Made by a program: the position numbers and the translations under genes. 32,000 bases of DNA from an uncultured Chloroflexia bacterium. GTDB taxonomy: Bacteria; Chloroflexota; Anaerolineae; Anaerolineales; Anaerolineaceae. Positions 9,926 through 25,498 of this stretch are shown here, piece by piece (position 1 is the first letter of the stretch; each line of letters opens with the position of its first letter). The notes beneath the pieces were generated by a model, which had not been told where the DNA came from, did no database searches, and saw nothing but the letters and a program-made list of their open reading frames with translations. The stretch covers positions 3,300,001 to 3,332,000 of the forward strand of contig OY969938.1 of the NCBI GenBank assembly GCA_963704755.1, in the 5' to 3' direction.

Positions 9926-9945
9926 AGGAAATATTTTAAAATACC

Positions 9946-10057
9946 GTAACTATTCAGGCTCCTGTTAAGAAGTTACCGAATATGAGGTGCGTGCGGGGGC
10001 AGCGCCCCCGCACGCACCTCATATTCGGATTTCTTCCCCGCCAGGCTGAGCAGTTAC
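9946..10057. mobile_element. 112-nt foldback MITE-like element, copy 1 (A-end left, B-end right)
   Basis: Termini GTAAC...GTTAC. Perfect 25-bp central stem 9976-10000 / 10004-10028 with loop AGC. Flanked by identical 8-mers AAAATACC (9938-9945 and 10058-10065). Confidence 0.7.
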
Positions 10058-10394
10058 AAAATACCGTCACCCAAACAGGAAAAAATCGAGTAAAGTTGTG
10101 CTATTCACACCTCAAGGTTACTCGAAAAGCCATGCCAGGGGTTGTGGCGCTTTTTCAAAACAAGACAAATTTTATGTCAACGAATTGCTCTGGAAAGCAA
10201 TTCAATAGCCGCTTTTTCGCTGAGATATTCCGGTTTGAGCGCTTTGCACATTGTCCTTAGCCTGTGACATGCCTTTGGTTGGCGAGGGTCTTGATTTTTC
10301 GGCGGTTTTCTGGGTTTGTCCTTATTCCACTGATGGACACAGCAAACAATAATCTCCTAAAAATTATTCAACTTTACACAAACGAGGGATATTA

Positions 10395-13404: not shown

Positions 13405-13516
13405 GTAACCTTACAGGCCAGTTCGGGCACGATGTGTGTTTTTGTGGGTTTTCGCGCGGCGAAACCCGTGAAAAGCAACAAAAACACACTACCTTCCAAG
13501 GTGGCTGACCAGTTAC
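13405..13516. mobile_element. 112-nt foldback MITE-like element, copy 2 (A-end left)
   Basis: GTAAC...GTTAC termini. 12-bp stem 13434-13445 / 13478-13489 enclosing a nested GGGTTTTCGC/GCGAAACCC hairpin. Flanking 8-mers CCTTTTTG / CTTTTTTG (7/8). Confidence 0.65.
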
Positions 13517-16262: not shown

Positions 16263-17511
16263 TGGCTCAAAATAAATGTTACCCTAACGCGGAATAAAGC
16301 ACCGCAGAGGGAGCTCATGATGAGTCAACGCAGTCGGCGGGAGATGCTAGAAAGCATTCGTCCGCGCTATTTGAAAGCCAGGAAAGCCGAGAAGAAACAG
16401 ATTCTGGATGAATTTATCGCCACAAGCGGATATCATCGTAAATACGCTATTCGGCTGTTGAAGCATGGTTCCAAGCCAAAGGGGTTGAAGAAAGCCGGGC
16501 GACGGAAGAAATACAACGGGGAAGTCGTCGTGGCTCTGGAAAAGATTTGGGAAGTTAGTGGGTGCATCTGCTCAAAACGACTACAGCCTTTTATTCCTGA
16601 AATGGTGGATGTTTTAGAGCGCTGGCAGGAAATAGAGTTGAGCGAGGAAACCAAAGCGCTTTTGTTGAGCTTGAGCCGGGCCACCATAGATCGCTGTTTG
16701 AAAAAGGCACGCCTCGCCCCCACCCCACGTGGGCTTGGGACTACCAAACCGGGCAGTTTGCTCAAACAAGCCATTCCCATCCGCACCTTTACCCCTTGGG
16801 AGGACGAGAAGCCAGGCTTTCTGGAAATCGACCTGGTGGCCCATTGTGGTACAACCACCGAGGGTACCTACCTCAATACCCTCACTGCAACCGATTTAGC
16901 CACCGGCTGGACCGAGTGCCTGGGCCTGGCCAACAAAACCCAGACAGCTGTCTCTCAAGCCATTGAGGAATTGCGCCATAACCTGCCTTTTCCTCTTTTG
17001 GGATTGGATTCAGACAATGGCAGTGAATTCATCAACGATACACTTTTGCGATACTGCCAGAGCGAACTCATTACCTTTACGCGTTCGCGGCCTTACCACA
17101 AGAATGATCAGGCTCATGTGGAACAGAAGAATTGGTCGGTTGTTCGACATACCATTGGCTATGACCGCTTCGAAACCCCACAAGAACTTGCCTTGCTCAA
17201 ATCCATTTACTCCGATTTGCGTCTTTACATCAATTTTTTCCAGCCAGTTCTCAAACTGATTGCTAAAGAAACCGTTGACGGCAAGACGATCCGTAAGTAT
17301 GATCTGGCCAAGACCCCCTATCGCCGGGTCTTAGCCCAGGACTCTCTTCCCCTGAAAGTCAAGGCCAGTCTTACTGCCCAATATGTTCATCTGAACCCTG
17401 TGTCCTTACAGGCCAGTATCAATAAAAAGGTCAATCAATTGTTAAGAATTCTCCGGTAACATTTCTATTTGAGGCAACGATTATCCCAAAGTAACATTTT
17501 ATTTTGAGGCA
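16263..17511 (+). mobile_element. insertion sequence with a single rve-type DDE transposase
   Basis: Terminal inverted repeats TGGCTCAAAATAAATGTTAC (16263-16282) and GTAACATTTTATTTTGAGGCA (17491-17511). No clear target-site duplication. Family uncertain (ISNCY/IS481-like from memory). Confidence 0.65.
16317..17459 (+). CDS. DDE-type integrase/transposase (rve domain)
   Basis: 380 aa with an N-terminal HTH-like region (ILDEFIATSGYHRKYAIRLL). Candidate catalytic residues are in EIDLVAH, LDSDNGSEF and NDQAHVEQKN. Confidence 0.85.
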   Translation: MMSQRSRREMLESIRPRYLKARKAEKKQILDEFIATSGYHRKYAIRLLKHGSKPKGLKKAGRRKKYNGEVVVALEKIWEVSGCICSKRLQPFIPEMVDVLERWQEIELSEETKALLLSLSRATIDRCLKKARLAPTPRGLGTTKPGSLLKQAIPIRTFTPWEDEKPGFLEIDLVAHCGTTTEGTYLNTLTATDLATGWTECLGLANKTQTAVSQAIEELRHNLPFPLLGLDSDNGSEFINDTLLRYCQSELITFTRSRPYHKNDQAHVEQKNWSVVRHTIGYDRFETPQELALLKSIYSDLRLYINFFQPVLKLIAKETVDGKTIRKYDLAKTPYRRVLAQDSLPLKVKASLTAQYVHLNPVSLQASINKKVNQLLRILR

Positions 17512-17698
17512 CCACGGCCGTATCCCTTGAACCATGTAATTGCCAAAAGTGTTTTTGAATCGGCCCTGAATTCGGCAAAGAAAAATAATATTTTTGTTGT
17601 TGATTGATCGTAAGTTATTTGCCCCCCGAATTTAGGCTGGCCACGATCTGGAGCCGGAGCACACCATATTCCTCTCTGAGAACTATGGTGTGCTCCGG

Positions 17699-18330
17699 GG
17701 TTAGTTGTTTTTTTCGTAAAAGTCGCGTCCTAACGGTGCGTTCCGGGCACGCCGGTGTGGGCCAGTGGCCTGGTTATTCAACCATTTCCAGGATGGCAGC
17801 CCTAAAACGCACCCTACGCCGAGGTGGTTTTTAAGAAAATCTTCTTTGCGTCCTCTGCGTCTCAGCGGTGCAATATCTGGCTGCGTATAAGAGCGGCCTC
17901 GGTCTGGAGACCGGGCCGAACGCTTAAGGCGATTTTCCTTGATGAACCATCTTCTCTTTTAAGGTTTTCTCTGTGAACTCCGTGACTCTGTGGTTAGTTG
18001 TTTATTTTTGTAAAAGTCGCGTCCTAACGGTGCGTTCCGGGCACGCCGGTGTGGGCCAGTTGCCTGGTGATTCAACCATTTTCAGGATGGCAGCCCTAAA
18101 ACGCACCCTACGCCGAGGTGCTTTTTAAGAAAATCTTCTCTACGCTCCCCACGCCCTGGCGGGCGGTGCCATGGTCTGCGCCTCAGCGGTGCCAAATCTG
18201 GCCAGCATTGAAGAGCGGCCTCGGCCGACGGTACGGAGGTGAGACCGGGCCGAACGCTTAATACTAAATTTTTTGATGATCCGTTTTTTAAGGTTTCCTC
18301 TGCGTGCTCTGCGTCTCAGCGGTGCAATTC
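17699..18330 (+). repeat. two tandem ~293-nt non-coding repeat units (17699-17991, 17992-~18330)
   Basis: A-segments 17699-17845 and 17992-18139 differ at about 6 of ~148 positions by manual alignment. Each unit also holds a GC-rich B hairpin (17889-17928, 18211-18260). Each unit also carries two copies of a TTTTTAAG...CTCTGCG..CTCAGCGGTG-like motif (four in total, some divergent). Confidence 0.8.
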
Positions 18331-18518
18331 TTTGTGGTTTTCTTTCTTGACAAAGTGCAAGATTACTTCTTGCTTACAGTAAGATAAAAATTATGCGGTT
18401 TGGACGCTTGTTCTCTTTATAAAATTGCCATCATCCGCATCGGGTGTGTCGGCATCTACAGGTTTTGAAGAGAGCTTACCGGCTGATTAGCGGTGTTTGC
18501 TTGTGGCCGGCAGGCGGC

Positions 18519-18930: not shown

Positions 18931-19042
18931 GTCACTGCTCAGCTATCCAGGGAAGGGGATGTTTTTATTGTTTTTCGCGTGCGAAGCACGCGAAAAACAA
19001 TAAAAACATCCCCTTCTTTCAACTGGCCGAAGTAGTTTTGAC
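18931..19042. mobile_element. 112-nt foldback MITE-like element, copy 3 (B-end left)
   Basis: GTCAC...GTTTTGAC termini. Perfect 31-bp stem 18952-18982 / 18986-19016 with loop GAA. Flanking 8-mers match only 5/8. Confidence 0.6.
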
Positions 19043-19340: not shown

Positions 19341-20021
19341 ATGCTTTCTATCCTTTTCGTCGAAGACGATGACACCATCGCTATGGGGGTGGAATACTCG
19401 CTCAAGCAGGACGGTTTCCAGGCCAGCCTGGCCCACCGCCTGGAGGAGGCGCGCGATCTGCTCAAGCGCCAGCCCTTCGACCTGGTGCTCTTGGACCTGG
19501 GATTGCCGGACGGCAGCGGCTATGAGCTGTGCAAAGAAATCCGCGCCGCCGGGAATACGCCCATCATCATCCTCTCTGCCCGCGACGAAGAGGCCAGCAT
19601 CGTCCTCGGCCTCGACCTGGGCGCGGACGACTATATCACCAAGCCCTTTCGCCTGCGCGAGCTGATCTCGCGCATGAAAGCCGTCTTGCGCCGCCGCGGG
19701 CCGGTCGAGACAGGCGACCGTACCCTCACTTGTGGGGACGTGACGGTTTTCGCCCAGCAGGCCAAGGTCTACAAGAACGGGCGCGAAGTGCTTTTGACCG
19801 CGCTGGAATACCGGCTGCTGCTCACGTTGATCCTCAACCAGGGCCGGGTGCTCACCCGCAGCCAGATTTTGGGCAGCATCTGGGATGTGGACGAAGATTT
19901 CGTCAACGACAACACCCTAACGGTCTACATCAAGCGCCTGCGCGAGAAGCTCGAGGACGACCCACAGAATCCGGCGCTGATCAAAACTGTACGCGGGTTG
20001 GGGTACCAGGTAGGCGATTGA
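19341..20021 (+). CDS. OmpR/PhoB-family response regulator
   Basis: Receiver domain (ILFVEDDD...DLVLLDLGLPDGSG) plus a winged-helix C-terminus (LTALEYRLLLTL...IKTVRGLGYQV). Confidence 0.9.
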   Translation: MLSILFVEDDDTIAMGVEYSLKQDGFQASLAHRLEEARDLLKRQPFDLVLLDLGLPDGSGYELCKEIRAAGNTPIIILSARDEEASIVLGLDLGADDYITKPFRLRELISRMKAVLRRRGPVETGDRTLTCGDVTVFAQQAKVYKNGREVLLTALEYRLLLTLILNQGRVLTRSQILGSIWDVDEDFVNDNTLTVYIKRLREKLEDDPQNPALIKTVRGLGYQVGD

Positions 20022-20022
20022 C

Positions 20023-21279
20023 ATGAAACAGCTCCTTCATTCAGAAGAACGAAAATTGTTTATCTCCACAATAACCCTGTCGCTGATCGCTCTCCTGGCG
20101 GCAGGGCTCCTCAGCCTGGCAGTGACGATATATACCAACCGGGCGGTCAAAGACACTTATGCAGGCATCGTCGGCACGGTGACGCAGCGCTACCCCCAGG
20201 CCGAGGCGCAGGTCGTGCAGGATCTGACTTCGCCGGACGCCGCCTCCATCAGCCTGGGAACCCAGGTATTGGAGAAATATGGCCTGGGCGATCAGATTGC
20301 GGTCGAAGATCCCGCGCTCGGCGGGGCGGATACCGGCGTTGCCGCCGGCCTGCTGGCGCGCCTGCTGCCGGTCGGACTGGCGCTGGTCGGGCTGATCTGC
20401 ACCGGGTTCGTTCTTTTGCTGGCGCGTTACCAGCGGGCAGTTTCGGCCCAGGTGGCAGGGCTTTCGGCCTACCTGCGCCAGATCGATGGCGGTGATTATG
20501 CGCTGGACGTACGCGATAACGGCGAGGGCAGCTTCAGCCTGTTGAAGAACGACCTGTATAAGGTCACCGTCCGGCTGCGTGAGCAGGCCGAATTGCTGCA
20601 AAAGGATAAAACCGCCTTATCCAACCTGATCGCCGACATCTCCCACCAGATCAAAACCCCGCTCACTTCGTTGGGCGTTTTGGCCGACCTGCTGGCCGAG
20701 GATCCCCCGGAGGCGGACCGGCGCGCGTTTGTCGAGCGCCTGCGCGCGCAGCTCGGGCGCATCCAATGGCTGGTGACGGCTTTGCTCAAGCTGGCCCGGC
20801 TGGATGCCGGCACCGCTGCTTTAAAAAGCGAACCGGTGGACCTGCGCCGGCTGATCGAACGGGCGCTGGAACCGCTGCAGATCCCACTCGAGATCAAGCG
20901 ACAGCGCCTCGAGGTGCACGGCGAGGCAGAGGCAAGTTTTACCGGCGACCTCAACTGGAGCGCCGAGGCGCTGACCAACGTGGTCAAGAACTGTGTCGAA
21001 CATACCCCCGAGGGCGGGAAGATCGAGATAACTTACAGCGCCAACGCCTTATACGCCGAGATCATCGTCAGCGACGATGGCGAGGGGATTGCGCGCCGGG
21101 ATATCCCTCACGTCTTCAACCGCTTGTATCGCGGTGAGAACGCCGGCGAGAACAGCGTCGGTATCGGGCTGGCGTTGGCCAAGTCCGTCTTCACCGCCCA
21201 GGGCGGGGATATCACCGTGCGCAGCGAGCCCGGAGTGGGGACGCGCTTCGAGATCCGCCTTTTCCGCGGGGTGGTTTAA
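20023..21279 (+). CDS. sensor histidine kinase (two TM segments, HisKA + HATPase_c)
   Basis: H-box ADISHQIKTPLTSL, N-box VVKNCVEHT, G-boxes DDGEGI and GIGLALAK. Starts 1 nt after the regulator stop. Confidence 0.9.
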   Translation: MKQLLHSEERKLFISTITLSLIALLAAGLLSLAVTIYTNRAVKDTYAGIVGTVTQRYPQAEAQVVQDLTSPDAASISLGTQVLEKYGLGDQIAVEDPALGGADTGVAAGLLARLLPVGLALVGLICTGFVLLLARYQRAVSAQVAGLSAYLRQIDGGDYALDVRDNGEGSFSLLKNDLYKVTVRLREQAELLQKDKTALSNLIADISHQIKTPLTSLGVLADLLAEDPPEADRRAFVERLRAQLGRIQWLVTALLKLARLDAGTAALKSEPVDLRRLIERALEPLQIPLEIKRQRLEVHGEAEASFTGDLNWSAEALTNVVKNCVEHTPEGGKIEITYSANALYAEIIVSDDGEGIARRDIPHVFNRLYRGENAGENSVGIGLALAKSVFTAQGGDITVRSEPGVGTRFEIRLFRGVV

Positions 21280-21350
21280 GGCATGGTTGTTTCTGTGAGC
21301 TTACAGGTATGGTCGGGGGTCATGTACAGGTATAAAAATGGAGGTCGAAT

Positions 21351-21923
21351 ATGGCTAACTTGATTTACATAGCGAACACCTCACTCGACGGGTACACCGA
21401 AGACAAGGATGGTAAGTTTGACTGGACAGGCCCAAGTGAGGAATTGTTCAAATTTATCACGGACATCGTAAGGACAACACGCACGCACCTCTATGGGCGG
21501 CGCATGTATGAGACCATGATGGTGTGGGAGACTGATCCCAATCTGGCCGCCGAGTCTCCGCCCATGCGTGATTTCGCGGAGACCTGGCAAGCGGCCAATA
21601 AAATCGTGTACTCCAGGACGTTGAAGACGATCTCCACTCGCAACACGCAGCTCGAGCAAAACTTTGATCCGCAAGCGATTCGCCAGCTTAAAGCAGCCAG
21701 CGATCATGACATCCTCATCGGGGGTCCCGAACTCGCCGCCCAGGCCTTCCAGGCCGGGTTGATCGACGAGTACCAACTGTTCCTTATCCCGATTCTCGTG
21801 GGCGGCGGCAAATCGGCACTGCCCGACAACCTGCGATTGGAGTTCGAACTTTTGGCGGAACACCGCTTTCGCAATGGTATAGTTTTCCTCCGGTATCGAA
21901 CAAAGCCGGAAAGAGCCGCCTGA
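21351..21923 (+). CDS. dihydrofolate reductase family protein (RibD C-terminal domain type)
   Basis: 190 aa: MANLIYIANTSLDGYTEDKDGKFDW...LYGRRMYE...ILIGGPELAAQAF..GLIDEYQLFLIPILVGGG. Confidence 0.75.
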   Translation: MANLIYIANTSLDGYTEDKDGKFDWTGPSEELFKFITDIVRTTRTHLYGRRMYETMMVWETDPNLAAESPPMRDFAETWQAANKIVYSRTLKTISTRNTQLEQNFDPQAIRQLKAASDHDILIGGPELAAQAFQAGLIDEYQLFLIPILVGGGKSALPDNLRLEFELLAEHRFRNGIVFLRYRTKPERAA

Positions 21924-22005
21924 CACACATCGTCAGGTGAATAAATTGTCACAATTATAGTCACCGCAGGGTCACTCGCCATCGGTATGCTTTGAATGTT
22001 GGTAA

Positions 22006-22117
22006 GTAACTGTTCAGCCAAATGGGTAAGAATCCTGGATTTGAGGTGTTTGCGGGGGCTTCGCTCCCGCAAACACCTCAAATCCAGGAACTTTTATACA
22101 GGAGCCTGAGAAGTTAC
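22006..22117. mobile_element. 112-nt foldback MITE-like element, copy 4 (B-end left, inverted relative to copy 1)
   Basis: GTAAC...GTTAC termini. 26-bp stem 22034-22059 / 22063-22088 with one G-T pair and loop TTC. Flanking 8-mers GTTGGTAA / ATTGGTAA (7/8). Confidence 0.7.
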
Positions 22118-22148
22118 ATTGGTAATTCATAAATCTTGGAGGCATATA

Positions 22149-22832
22149 GTGGAAATTCTCGAGGTGAATAACCTTTCGAAGGTTTACGGAAAAGGCGATA
22201 CGCAGATCAAGGCCCTGGATGACGTCAGCTTTAAAGTAGAAAAAGGCGAATTCGTTGCTATCGTCGGCCCTTCCGGCTCTGGTAAATCGACCTTGCTGCA
22301 CATCCTGGGCGGGGTGGATACGCCCAGTTCTGGCCAGGTGCTGGTAGATGGCACCGACATCTGCACTCTCGATCAGACCAAACTGGCCATCTTCCGCCGC
22401 CGGCAGATTGGCCTCATCTACCAGTTTTACAACCTGATCCCGATCCTCAACGTCGCGGAGAATATCACCCTGCCGCTGCTGCTGGACGGGCGCAGCCTGG
22501 ATGAGGCGCGTTTACAGGAACTCGTGACCACCCTGGGTTTGGCCGACCGGATCCAGCACTTGCCCAATCAGCTTTCCGGCGGGCAGCAGCAGCGCGTCTC
22601 CATCGGGCGGGCGCTGATCAATAACCCCGCCCTGGTCCTGGCCGACGAGCCCACCGGCAACCTGGACAGCGCCAACTCCAAGGATATCATGGCGCTGCTT
22701 AAACTTTCCAACCAGCGCTATCACCAAACGCTGATCATGGTGACCCACGATCATGACATCGCCCTGCAGGCCGACCGCATCATCTCCTTTAGCGACGGGT
22801 GCATCGAACGCGACGAGGCGGTACGGGCATGA
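22149..22832 (+). CDS. ABC transporter ATP-binding protein (MacB/LolD/FtsE type)
   Basis: GTG 22149 is preferred (TGGAGG 6 nt upstream; [14 protein letters not shown]). Walker [10 protein letters not shown], signature LSGGQQQRV, Walker B LVLADEPT. Confidence 0.9.
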
Positions 22833-25498
22833 ACATCCTGACCACGTATACCCTGAAGTACCTGCGCCTGAACAGGAAGCGCACCGCGGTGACCATCCTG
22901 GGGGTGGTCCTGTCCGCCGCCCTGATCTGCGGGGTGCTCCTGCTGGGGGGCAGCTTCCAGAAGGTGATGATCGACCACGAGATCTACATGTCGGGGAACT
23001 GGCACGCCCAGTTCCACGCCGTGCCCTACGAAAAGGCGAAATATATCACCGACAACAGCGCCGTCCAAACGGCGATGCTCAGCACATGGCTCGGAAACGC
23101 CACTTATGGCAGCCACAACACCGCCCGGCCTTACCTGTACGTCACCGCCTATGACGCGACTTCTTTCCAAAACTACCCCATCCGGCTGGTATCTGGACGC
23201 CTTCCCCAAAACGGGAATGAGCTGCTCGTTTCGCAGACGATGATTCGGGACTCTGGCTTGGACTTGAAACCTGGCGCTACCTTGCAACTGACGTTTGGCC
23301 AGCGAAATTTCCCCGACTACGATGGGCGCGTCAAGGCCTGGGGCGGAGAAGAGTACGTCGCTCTGCAAGATGGAGAAACCTTTACCCCGTCCGGTTCAAA
23401 AAACTACACAGTGGTCGGCGTGATGAAGTCTTCGTCCGATGAGACCAGCATGCCCGCGGATTTCCCGGCTTTCACATCCCTCGACCCGGCTCAATTGGCA
23501 GCCACAGACACAGTGGACATCGCCATCCTGGCCCGCGATCCACGCAGCATTTCCACCAGCGCGCCGGCGATGGCGAAGAGCGCCGGGTTGGAGGTGACCC
23601 CCGGCCCGGACGGCAAGCCTGAAAACATCACCTACAATGAGGACCTGCTGCCCTGGCTGGGCGCCAGCGGCCGTTCCAACTACGTGGCCTTCTTCCTGGC
23701 GACCATCGCCGTGGTTATCGCCCTGATCATGTGCGGCTCGGTATTGCTGATCTACAACGCTTTCGCCATCTCGATCGGCGAGCGCAAGAAGCAGTTCGGT
23801 ATGTTTGCCAGTGTGGGCGCCACCGCCGCGCAGATCCGCCGCATCGTGCTGACCGAAGCAGGAGTTATCGCGGCCATTGGCATCCCGCTGGGCATTCTGG
23901 GTGCCATCGCCGGGGTGGAGATCCTGGCGGCGCTCACCCAGGGGATCGTCTCTCAGTTGATCCTGGACGCGCAGCAGGGGCTGACGTTGGTGGCCTCGCC
24001 GTTGGTTTTCGGTGTGACCGTGCTGTTTTCCGCGGCGACCATCTTGCTCTCGGCCTGGATCCCCGCCCGGCGCGCTTCGCGGGTTTCGCCCATCGAGGCC
24101 ATCCGCCAGAGCGGCGAGATCCAGGAGGGCAAACCACACAATCTGCGCACCAGCCCGCTCATCCGGCGGGTGTTTGGGTTCGAGGGCGAGCTGGCGCTCA
24201 AATCCCTCCAGCGCGACCGCAAACGGTACCTGACCACCTTACTCTCGCTCATGATTAGCATCATCTTGTTCGTTGCCTTCAACGCGCTGATGCTGTATAC
24301 CAACACCACTACCAGCATGGCTAACAAAGCGATGAACTTCGACCTGATAATTTCCCTGGACTACCGCCAAAGCCACGCTCTGGATTTTGCCGACATGGCC
24401 AGCCAACTGCCAGAAGTGCAGAGGGTTGCCTATAGGCGCTGCACCTACGAGCAGTACGCCCCTCCCCGTGCGGTGATCACCGACCCGGCTAACCAGGCCC
24501 TGCAAGAGCTGAATAACCTTAAAATTGAAAATATCCCCTCCCCAGTAGCAGGCGGTACATACCAGTTTGTGCTTCAAGTGTGTGCAGTGGGGCCGTCCGA
24601 GTTTGCTCACTACGCCGCGCAGCTCGGTCTGGACCCCCAACAGTATTCCGATCCATCCGCGCCGCTGGGGATCCTGATCAACCACACCACCCTGCGCCAG
24701 GGTGGCAAGCTGTATGATTTCGACGTGTTCAACCTTAAGCCGGGCGATACGATGACTGTCTCCAAGATGTCTGGCTACTCCACCCCCCAAACTGGTAATG
24801 AAACACCGGCCAGCCTGACGTGGAGGGTGGGCGCGGTTACCCAAGAGTTCCCTTTGGGTTTTCTGGGGGCAACGCTGGTTCCGAATTTGATCGTCTCGGA
24901 CGCCGTCTTCGATGGTTTGAGCGACCAACTGTTGCAGTTAGGCCCGAGCAATCCCGGCGCCATGTACATCCAGAGCAGGACCCCGGACGCAGCTGTGGCA
25001 GCCCTCCAACGGCTCTACCAGGCTACGGTCGGGGGCGACTTCTCGTACAATTCGACGGCTGAGATGAATAAGAACCGAAACCTGCAGGCGCTGATGACCA
25101 ACCTGTTTTTTTACGGGTTCCTGGCGTTGATCACGCTGATCGGGGTGACCAACATCATCAACACCCTGGATTCCAACATCAAGCTGCGCCGGCGCGAGAT
25201 CGCCATGCTCAAATCCGTTGGGCTGACGCCGGGCGGCTTTCGGTCCATGCTGCGCTACGAGAGCCTGTTCTACGGGCTGACCGCGCTGCTGTATGGTCTT
25301 CCGCTGGGGATTGCTGTGAGCGTGGTCATCTACTTCCAGTTCGGCGGGGTGAGTAGCTTTTCCTTCAGCCTGCCCTGGGGAGCGATCGCGGCTTGCATCG
25401 CCGGCGTTCTGGCGATTGTCTTCACCACCATGATGATTTCGGGTGCGATGATTCGCAACGACAACATCGTAAATACGATCAAAGAAGAAAATTTGTAG
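22829..25498 (+). CDS. FtsX-family ABC permease with two FtsX modules and two large extracytoplasmic domains
   Basis: ATG 22829 overlaps the ATPase stop (ATGA). N-terminal [33 protein letters not shown], with FtsX-type helix bundles near aa 290-420 and 780-889. Confidence 0.85.
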   Translation: MNILTTYTLKYLRLNRKRTAVTILGVVLSAALICGVLLLGGSFQKVMIDHEIYMSGNWHAQFHAVPYEKAKYITDNSAVQTAMLSTWLGNATYGSHNTARPYLYVTAYDATSFQNYPIRLVSGRLPQNGNELLVSQTMIRDSGLDLKPGATLQLTFGQRNFPDYDGRVKAWGGEEYVALQDGETFTPSGSKNYTVVGVMKSSSDETSMPADFPAFTSLDPAQLAATDTVDIAILARDPRSISTSAPAMAKSAGLEVTPGPDGKPENITYNEDLLPWLGASGRSNYVAFFLATIAVVIALIMCGSVLLIYNAFAISIGERKKQFGMFASVGATAAQIRRIVLTEAGVIAAIGIPLGILGAIAGVEILAALTQGIVSQLILDAQQGLTLVASPLVFGVTVLFSAATILLSAWIPARRASRVSPIEAIRQSGEIQEGKPHNLRTSPLIRRVFGFEGELALKSLQRDRKRYLTTLLSLMISIILFVAFNALMLYTNTTTSMANKAMNFDLIISLDYRQSHALDFADMASQLPEVQRVAYRRCTYEQYAPPRAVITDPANQALQELNNLKIENIPSPVAGGTYQFVLQVCAVGPSEFAHYAAQLGLDPQQYSDPSAPLGILINHTTLRQGGKLYDFDVFNLKPGDTMTVSKMSGYSTPQTGNETPASLTWRVGAVTQEFPLGFLGATLVPNLIVSDAVFDGLSDQLLQLGPSNPGAMYIQSRTPDAAVAALQRLYQATVGGDFSYNSTAEMNKNRNLQALMTNLFFYGFLALITLIGVTNIINTLDSNIKLRRREIAMLKSVGLTPGGFRSMLRYESLFYGLTALLYGLPLGIAVSVVIYFQFGGVSSFSFSLPWGAIAACIAGVLAIVFTTMMISGAMIRNDNIVNTIKEENL

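Follow-up and report, generated by a model that had tools for sequence, protein, structure and literature searches.

The 32,000-nucleotide window analyzed here (contig OY969938.1, positions 3,300,001 to 3,332,000, from an uncultured Chloroflexia bacterium; coordinates below are those of the window) carries a 112-nt hairpin element at 22006-22117, between a gene of dihydrofolate reductase (DHFR)-like fold and an operon for an ATP-binding cassette (ABC) transporter. This element is a copy of a non-autonomous DNA transposon, i.e. a miniature inverted-repeat transposable element (MITE). We call it copy 2; copy 1 lies at 9946-10057. The first-pass annotation had correctly placed the element between a DHFR-like gene and the start of the ABC operon; the upstream product has a RibD_C domain, and the downstream genes encode an ABC ATPase and a MacB/FtsX permease. 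The distance of 31 nt from the end of the element (22117) to the GTG start codon at 22149 was likewise confirmed. The features of the locus and of the two copies are as follows.

21351..21923, plus strand: upstream gene, RibD_C (DHFR-like fold) protein (PF01872, E = 8.9e-17)
21998..22005, unstranded: left target-site duplication of copy 2, 8 bp, GTTGGTAA, 7/8 match to the right one
22006..22117, unstranded: MITE copy 2, 112 nt, subfamily A (exact termini match; inverted 75% match to copy 1; subfamily member by profile search)
22006..22019, plus strand: left terminal inverted repeat GTAACTGTTCAGCC, 0 mismatches to GTAACTNNTCAGSC, a motif that also ends insertion sequences (ISs) of the ISBst12 group
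22033..22059, plus strand: left arm of the central stem, 27 nt (repeat finder and fold)
22049..22050, plus strand: TT of the compensated double substitution, pairing with A22073 and A22072 (hairpin alignment columns 18/47 and 19/46)
22060..22062, plus strand: loop TTC; relatives at fixed spacer orientation have TTC or GAA
22063..22089, plus strand: right stem arm, Watson-Crick paired throughout except at T22065, which faces G22057
22072..22073, plus strand: AA partner of the double substitution (sequence and hairpin alignment)
22104..22117, minus strand: right terminal inverted repeat GTAACTTCTCAGGC (minus-strand reading), 0 mismatches
22118..22125, unstranded: right target-site duplication ATTGGTAA
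22138..22142, plus strand: Shine-Dalgarno sequence GGAGG of the ABC ATPase gene, 6 nt before the GTG at 22149 and left intact by the insertion
22149..22832, plus strand: ABC transporter ATPase gene with a GTG start (PF00005, E = 1.2e-35)
22799..25498, plus strand: MacB/FtsX-type permease gene (PF02687 and PF12704)
9946..10057, unstranded: MITE copy 1, 112 nt, in the opposite orientation, with a perfect 25-bp stem (9976-10000 / 10004-10028)
9938-9945 and 10058-10065: target duplication of copy 1, AAAATACC, identical on both sides (8/8)

Copy 2 extends from GTAAC to GTTAC, and its 14-nt termini fit the motif GTAACTNNTCAGSC. It combines terminal inverted repeats and a target duplication of fixed length with small size, multiple copies and lack of coding content, leaving no room for a transposase. 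The exact termini together with the 8-bp duplications identify a genuine MITE with exact boundaries. Removal of the element and one duplication copy shortens the intergenic region between the RibD_C and ABC genes from 225 to 105 nt, and the empty site would read ...GAATGTTGGTAATTCATAAATC.... With 11 occurrences in the window, the terminal motif exceeds the 3.0 expected by chance, and these matches exposed two more elements.

13405..13516, unstranded: third element, 112 nt, termini GTAACCTTACAGGC / GTAACTGGTCAGCC, target duplication CCTTTTTG / CTTTTTTG (7/8)
18931..19042, unstranded: probable decayed fourth element, left end GTCACTGCTCAGCT (2 mismatches), right end degenerate, right boundary uncertain

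The interior hairpin of the third element (13434-13456 / 13467-13489, 87%) is unrelated to those of copies 1 and 2; its interior (GTGTGTTTTTGTGGGTTTTCGCG...) resembles that of the element at 18931. No recognizable target duplication was found around 18931-19042, which retains a perfect 31-bp stem (18952-18982 / 18986-19016) with a 3-nt loop. Such a stem beside decayed ends is unexpected under neutral decay, and either the hairpin was maintained in place or the boundaries are wrong.

We scanned one genome per species with a pattern composed of the two termini only, leaving the interior unspecified. The scan yielded at least 119 loci from about 46 assemblies, of which approximately 33 are labelled as Chloroflexota (Anaerolineae, Thermoflexales, Caldilineales, Chloroflexia and Dehalococcoidia) and the others are scattered. 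Altogether at least 129 elements with exact termini were collected, including the two window copies, with a modal length of 112 nt. Among the matches listed, 85 of the 126 elements with testable flanks are bordered by a perfect 8-bp duplication and 13 more by one matching at 7/8 positions; other repeat lengths (2-7, 9-12) occurred in only 0-6 elements. Near-identical copies were found at different sites, each with its own duplication. Reconstructed empty sites are 65% AT in loci of 56% GC and show a weak S-A-W4-T-S symmetry. One duplication, AAATTATG, surrounds elements of different sub-families in three unrelated assemblies (L014 2417, L033 6934 and L041 587). The subfamily of the window hairpin has at least 22 members in the genome-scan data by profile search, and four further members come from one metagenome (three intact, one with decayed ends). 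A metagenome scan with a spacer-based pattern for the copy 2 lineage returned three contigs, all of the L100 type and none from the population of the source organism itself. Most of these data are short-read metagenome-assembled genomes (MAGs), in which perfect palindromes can be mis-assembled.

Exact termini were also found in MAGs labelled as Acidobacteria, Armatimonadota, Elusimicrobia, Fibrobacterota, Verrucomicrobia, Proteobacteria and one archaeon (L102, a Methanothrix MAG; L103, L050, L074, L023, L041 and others). Perfect duplications accompany some matches (L023, L041 and L042); others, such as L102, have no duplication and fold poorly. Horizontal spread, binning contamination or chance may account for these loci.

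The bacterial MITEs known from other lineages (Correia/NEMIS of Neisseria, RUP, ERIC and Nezha) are small, multi-copy and mostly intergenic fold-back elements with terminal inverted repeats and a target duplication, and are presumed to be mobilized in trans. The element at 22006-22117 resembles them in size, terminal repeats, duplication, copy number and fold-back. It differs in its apparent parent, which is of the IS66/ISBst12 type rather than IS630, IS5 or the like, and in its hosts, which are mainly Chloroflexota. Moreover, a single 14-bp end is here common to many sub-families whose interiors are unrelated, and in a subset a perfect stem sits exactly at the centre and its loop flips. A literature search of incomplete coverage revealed no description of ISBst12-type MITEs, of Chloroflexota MITEs or of the end sequence. 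Mobilization of a bacterial MITE was shown for MITEPsy1 (PMC3189936).

The ends of the element and the length of its duplication match those of ISBst12-group ISs. ISDge4 of Deinococcus geothermalis, a member of the ISBst12 group of the IS66 family with a single 449-aa transposase, was shown to transpose; its terminal inverted repeats are GTGACTACTCAGCA / GTAACTGCTCAGCA and its direct repeat is 8 bp (PMC12898284). An 8-bp direct repeat was also reported for IS66 (PMC11946415). The IS66-like element of the Geobacillus kaustophilus plasmid pHTA426 (14107-15741, 1635 bp, annotated as an IS66-like transposase) has the ends GTATCTATTCAGCCC / GTAACTATTCAGCCC and the duplication GACGAGTT on either side, and close homologues of its transposase contain the domains PF03050 (DDE_Tnp_IS66) and PF13005 (zf-IS66). 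Two metagenomic relatives of this transposase (L121-L126) lie inside elements of about 1.57 kb with ends GTAACTATTCAGCC... or GTATCTGCTCAGGC... and 8-bp duplications ATAAAAAG and CTTTTGTT; no Chloroflexota label was found among the cluster names of these relatives. The likeness to ISBst12, ISDge4 and the pHTA426 IS consists in the terminal sequence and the 8-bp duplication. In contrast, the ISs are about 1.57-1.64 kb long and code for one transposase (449-505 aa) that contains zf-IS66 and DDE_Tnp_IS66 domains, while the MITE has 112 nt and is non-coding. In the autonomous ISs only about 12-14 nt are inverted, so the central perfect stem of 25-27 bp, which they lack, is specific to the MITE and was not inherited from the IS ends. 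It is most likely that the DDE transposase of an ISBst12-group IS mobilizes 22006-22117 in trans by recognizing the 14-bp termini, and a partner of this kind is presumed to exist in the host. A protein of about 450-490 aa, present in several copies next to MITEs, was considered as a transposase candidate and turned out to be an ordinary HAMP/HisKA histidine kinase.

The ends and duplications also bear on whether the element could be a palindrome of another kind. Repetitive extragenic palindromic (REP) sequences are imperfect palindromes. Like REPs and REPINs, which are spread by a RAYT (Y1/HUH) transposase, the element is a repeated extragenic hairpin of about 100 nt, a total length similar to that of a REPIN doublet, with long hairpins in both cases. 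However, REPINs have neither target duplications nor DDE-type terminal repeats, whereas 22006-22117 has a clear 8-bp duplication and 14-bp terminal repeats identical to those of IS66-family ISs. Its head is GTAAC and not GTAG or CGTC, the tags of the REP super-families (PMC3733652), and no two-REP substructure is seen within the arms. Given the target duplication and the match of its ends to those ISs, a REPIN-RAYT identity can be regarded as effectively refuted, and of all the alternatives weighed here we give it the least credence. An IS200/IS605-derived palindromic element (PATE-like) is ruled out by the presence of terminal repeats and target duplications.

The hairpin itself was compared between the two copies, which are inverted repeats of each other over 112 nt (75%, repeat finder). 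The tip of copy 2 reads GAGGTG (22043-22048)-TT-TGCGGGGGC (22051-22059) / TTC / GCTCCCGCA (22063-22071)-AA-CACCTC (22074-22079), and that of copy 1 reads GAGGTG-CG-TGCGGGGGC / AGC / GCCCCCGCA-CG-CACCTC. The tip difference pointed out by the first-pass annotation, CG to TT on one arm and CG to AA on the other with pairing kept, is thus present exactly as claimed. A further compensated change lower in the stem, from CCGAATAT/ATATTCGG to CTGGATTT/AAATCCAG, adds three more compensated pairs that had been missed. According to the repeat finder, the arms of copy 2 (27 nt) are 96% complementary and those of copy 1 (25 nt) 100%. Fold energies correspond to z = -11.9 and -12.0, with none of 200 shuffles as good; on either strand, both copies fold about 8-12 standard deviations better than shuffles.

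The same layout recurs in several sub-families with unrelated stem sequences: a terminus (14 nt), a non-complementary spacer (about 15 nt), a perfect stem of 21-31 bp with a 3-4-nt loop, then a spacer and a terminus again. Among the matches listed, identical termini enclose 45 clusters of unrelated interiors, most of which fold far better than shuffles; a perfect stem of at least 10 bp occurs in 64 of 146 elements and one of at least 20 bp in 57. In 62 of these 64 the stem is centred on the midpoint of the element to within 3 nt, and none of 438 shuffles reaches 10 bp. For covariation we used a hairpin-only alignment of 14 distinct relatives, preferred to a MAFFT alignment of full elements, which was structurally inconsistent between sub-lineages. 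Standard pairs fill 96.9% of the cells, compared with about 52% in a slid control (39-55% for partners displaced by 1-3 columns), and 20 of the 26 stem pairs show both-sided changes, values reached by none of 500 shuffles. These numbers indicate that pairing has been maintained, and stem covariation is strong across the relatives. The first-pass annotation had named a larger alignment with mostly uncompensated tip substitutions as the finding that would count against its view; the alignment of the 14 relatives does not bear this out and supports maintained pairing instead. Wobble pairs of the G.U type occupy few cells (8 of 357) and show no excess among single changes, which fits a constraint on DNA complementarity rather than on an RNA.

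Could the family nevertheless consist of dead MITEs in neutral drift, the compensated double change being a coincidence? Copy 2 does carry uncompensated private changes, one in the stem and one in the duplication, as such drift would leave. But coincidence does not produce covariation in 20 of 26 pairs that 0 of 500 shuffles match, nor the 13 distinct compensated variants of subfamily B. For the family as a whole this explanation is refuted, it is very improbable as an account of the double change, and it holds only as a description of decay after insertion.

Independent insertions from an Anaerolineaceae MAG and from a metagenome share the TT/AA stem GAGGTGTTTGCGGG...CCCGCAAACACCTC of copy 2 (L100/L129 and L128; variants of it at L127 and L128 6865), and each intact site has its own target duplication. 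Since TT/AA is common to separate insertions, the difference arose between source lineages before either window copy inserted; copy 2 inherited it from its source lineage and did not acquire it at the locus. The changes private to copy 2, the G22057.T22065 position and one target-duplication mismatch, are uncompensated, and with one mismatch in each it looks like an ordinary, moderately old, ageing insertion. In subfamily B (53 aligned copies from two related MAGs, 13 distinct compensated variants), variants present in at least two copies are compensated in 8 of 11 cases, while single-copy variants, some of which may be common to copies outside the matches listed, are uncompensated in 11 of 16.

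Target duplications are identical at the time of insertion and were used as an internal clock. Stems accumulated 0.022 mismatches per pair and duplications 0.020-0.032 per position, figures in which the hairpin-architecture filter mildly favours low stem mismatch and inherited mismatches bias in the opposite direction. Private substitutions, at 0.20 in each stem column and 0.32 in each spacer column (p = 0.36), gave no sign that stems are protected in place. Inserted copies thus decay at a neutral rate, stems as fast as duplications, which speaks against selection by the host on individual loci and also against rapid repair in place. The proposal that the double substitution reflects selection on, or templated regeneration of, the hairpin rather than drift survives in part: pairing is beyond chance, and loop flips and symmetric indels (see below) are signs of templated copying, but the comparison does not support reading the substitution as information on this locus or as exempting the copy from drift, its TT/AA being inherited and its private changes uncompensated.

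As to transcription of the locus, the Shine-Dalgarno sequence takes up part of the 31 nt that separate the element from the GTG, and little room is left there for a promoter. A consensus scan found no promoter-like site in or downstream of the element; the lone upstream one is CTGACA-16-TAAATT at 21920-21947, and such a scan is not evidence of function. No terminator-like site was found in 21300-22900, the stem being followed by AAATCC on both strands. An intrinsic (rho-independent) terminator was accordingly rejected, as no T-run follows the stem. Rfam 15 gave no gathering-threshold match in the window, and a permissive scan returned only eukaryotic microRNA-precursor models far below threshold. 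The alternatives posed in the first-pass annotation, that transcription of the operon either starts within the 31 nt or reads through 22006-22117, are a fair and logically sound dichotomy; with no promoter-like site in or after the element, read-through is the likelier branch. The ABC operon is most likely transcribed through the element, which would add a 27-bp stem to its leader. Three GTCAC motifs, about 12 nt apart and noted by eye, lie at 21949-21977 between the RibD_C stop codon and the MITE. Upstream of them are genes for a response regulator of the OmpR type (19341-20021) and for a histidine kinase (20023-21279), and the motifs may be a binding site of this regulator for the ABC operon.

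The position of the element raises the possibility of a host-level regulatory structure (an RNA stem in the ABC leader, an RNase III site, or a terminator or attenuator that follows RibD_C) whose pairing is kept by selection on expression at the locus. The element indeed lies 31 nt before a start codon with the Shine-Dalgarno sequence intact, its 27-bp stem would be a strong RNA structure (-67 kcal/mol), the A6-stem-T6 layout of VGOC01 relatives resembles by eye a bidirectional intrinsic terminator, and other bacterial MITEs such as Correia elements affect transcripts. Nevertheless, no terminator- or promoter-like site is present in or after the element, the copy 2 lineage has AAATCC where the T-run would be, and no Rfam family matches at the gathering threshold. 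The same element occurs at more than 120 unrelated sites, in-place decay of its stems keeps pace with that of the neutral target duplications, there is no preference for G.U pairs, and the compensated change is older than the insertion. On balance we regard regulation at this locus as a decidedly improbable cause of the pairing.

How complementarity was kept along the lineages is suggested by several patterns. At fixed spacer orientation, each of two lineages has 11 copies with the loop GAA and 9 with TTC, and loop flips also occur in the subfamily of copy 2 (TAC/GTA in VGOC01, GAA/TTC between L129 and L128). Insertions and deletions are symmetric (TTTT/AAAA versus TTT/AAA, and C6/G6), and some compensated changes affect adjacent doublets (CG>TT; GG>CT with CC>AG). 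Template switching is known to homogenize the arms of inverted repeats and to invert spacers (PMC8604942, PMC8794818). The symmetric indels and loop flips point to templated copying between arms. The likeness to published quasipalindrome template switching (PMC8604942, PMC8794818) and to minute loop inversions of plastids lies in arm homogenization, multi-base compensated changes and spacer inversion; the published cases, however, concern genes, ribosomal RNA and plastid spacers, whereas here a transposing MITE family is concerned and the events are deduced from comparisons of copies, not from reconstructed ancestors.

Such mutation mechanics alone, i.e. template switching or gene conversion between arms or copies without selection on the hairpin at any level, might account for the pairing. 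This would agree with loop flips near 50:50, with symmetric indels and adjacent multi-base compensated changes, with perfect stems in copies with decayed ends, and with the published precedent (PMC8794818, PMC8604942). Against it, the stems of intact copies gain mismatches at the duplication rate and their private changes are mostly uncompensated, so in-place correction is not fast, and mismatches survive a pure tip inversion. Mechanics alone also leaves unexplained why the same centred layout (62/64) recurs in sub-families of unrelated sequence. We consider this explanation unlikely, while granting it more weight than any other rival.

Our preferred interpretation combines these results. A DDE transposase of an ISBst12-group IS would have placed the element in AT-rich DNA within the ABC-transporter leader, producing the 8-bp duplication. 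Along lineages that keep transposing, the stem stays Watson-Crick complementary, presumably through selection for fold-back competence at the level of transposition, the fold-back possibly serving as a hinge or cruciform by which ends separated by only about 84 bp are joined. Template switching from arm to arm during replication would supply the multi-base compensated changes, symmetric indels and loop inversions. Each copy, once inserted, drifts neutrally, copy 2 being such an ageing insertion, and the operon would most likely be transcribed through it from an upstream promoter. Of this, the MITE identity, the match of ends and duplication to ISBst12-type ISs, the covariation, the inherited TT/AA and the equal decay of stems and duplications are demonstrated, while the transposase partner in the host, the hinge, template switching and read-through are inferred. 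Taken as a whole (an ISBst12-mobilized MITE with pairing kept at the lineage level, an inherited TT/AA, neutral decay in place and read-through of the operon), we hold this interpretation to be probable, with good confidence.

Several observations weigh against it. Neither the window nor roughly 0.7 Mb of DNA around the MITEs (loci L001-L119) yielded an ISBst12-type transposase gene in a tblastn search with the pHTA426 transposase. A search of these loci for a full-length IS with such ends likewise found none; apart from one coincidental pair, all candidates were MITEs, either truncated or decayed. Perfect stems persist in copies with decayed ends (18952-19016; L128 6865-6917; L075 4243, with a decayed left spacer), which hints at some in-situ maintenance that the equal-decay test did not detect. 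Four 117-nt copies of one MAG (VGOC01: L086 5507-5623, L111 1483-1599, L045 3418-3534 and L066 5373-5489) share a remodelled imperfect tip, GGGGGCGCAGCCGCTTTGCGTTCGCAC, above an intact lower 21-bp stem and have distinct target duplications; as these copies kept transposing, a perfect tip is not strictly needed. Loop orientation was read from short-read MAG assemblies of perfect palindromes, its sole cross-check being one locus identical in records L100 and L129, possibly from the same data. Finally, sequence data alone do not separate selection from templated copying.

A bolder version would make the centred palindrome an essential cis-acting hinge or cruciform of very short ISBst12-mobilized elements, kept complementary by template switching frequent enough to flip the loop to 50:50, with hairpin modules swapped between MITE families with different ends. 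We put it forward only tentatively, as a possibility that is more doubtful than not. If true, template-switch rates could be measured, and structure-dependent transposition tested, in a natural system.

Hairpin modules were also observed outside the elements described above. The subfamily B module CGCGAAAC...GTTTCGCG occurs with different flanks, e.g. GGGGAGTGCGCAAAGCCCAATTGGTATC, with GGGGAGTGCGCAAAG-type flanks, and in chimeras (L016 4-60 and 3643-3699, L047 5552-5608, L067 3861-3917, L081 4103-4159 and L069 3199-3259); the chimera at L016 3643 has an ISBst12-type end on one side only. A second module, CGGCAGATTCGCCTCCCCCGC-TTT/AAA-GCGGGGGAGGCGAATCTGCCG with borders CTAAGT...ACTTAG, is sometimes joined directly to an ISBst12-type terminus (L022 609-653, L031 5466-5510, L069 210-254, L090 173-217 and 7601-7645, L098 165-209 and L101 3517-3561). 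Its loop is seen in both orientations, the spacer orientation not being fixed. The flanks of the first module suggest that repeat families with different ends share hairpin modules or exchange them. Hairpin relatives of the type CCCGAAAAAAGGGTG...CACCCTTTTTTCGGG place a GC-rich stem between A6 and T6 tracts, the layout of a bidirectional intrinsic terminator (L003, L045, L055, L079, L110 and L115 (VGOC01), L068 and L106); the copy 2 lineage lost these tracts and has AATTT/AAATT in their place. Within the window, a non-coding stretch packed with repeats (17650-18340) lies downstream of an open reading frame for an rve integrase (16317-17459). It contains a 143-nt direct repeat (94%; 17708-17850 / 18002-18144), three CTTTGCGTCCTCTGCGTCTCAGCGGTGCAAT-like units and a 21-bp hairpin (17654-17698), and some of its units resemble interiors of other MITE clusters (L033, L104).

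Copy 2 itself is ordinary, and for the ABC operon its probable consequence is a 120-nt addition to the leader that includes a 27-bp stem. At the family level, lineage-wise compensation, neutral decay, loop flipping and module reuse are of moderate, specialist interest. The work ties the repeat to a little-studied transposase group, the active transposition of ISBst12-type IS66 elements having been reported only recently (PMC12898284). It also illustrates that covariation in a repeated hairpin is not by itself proof of function at a given locus, since compensated differences can be inherited while the copies decay neutrally. For Anaerolineae and their relatives within the Chloroflexota, an abundant repeat is now named and delimited; such elements clutter the space between genes, where they are easily taken for terminators or regulatory RNAs.

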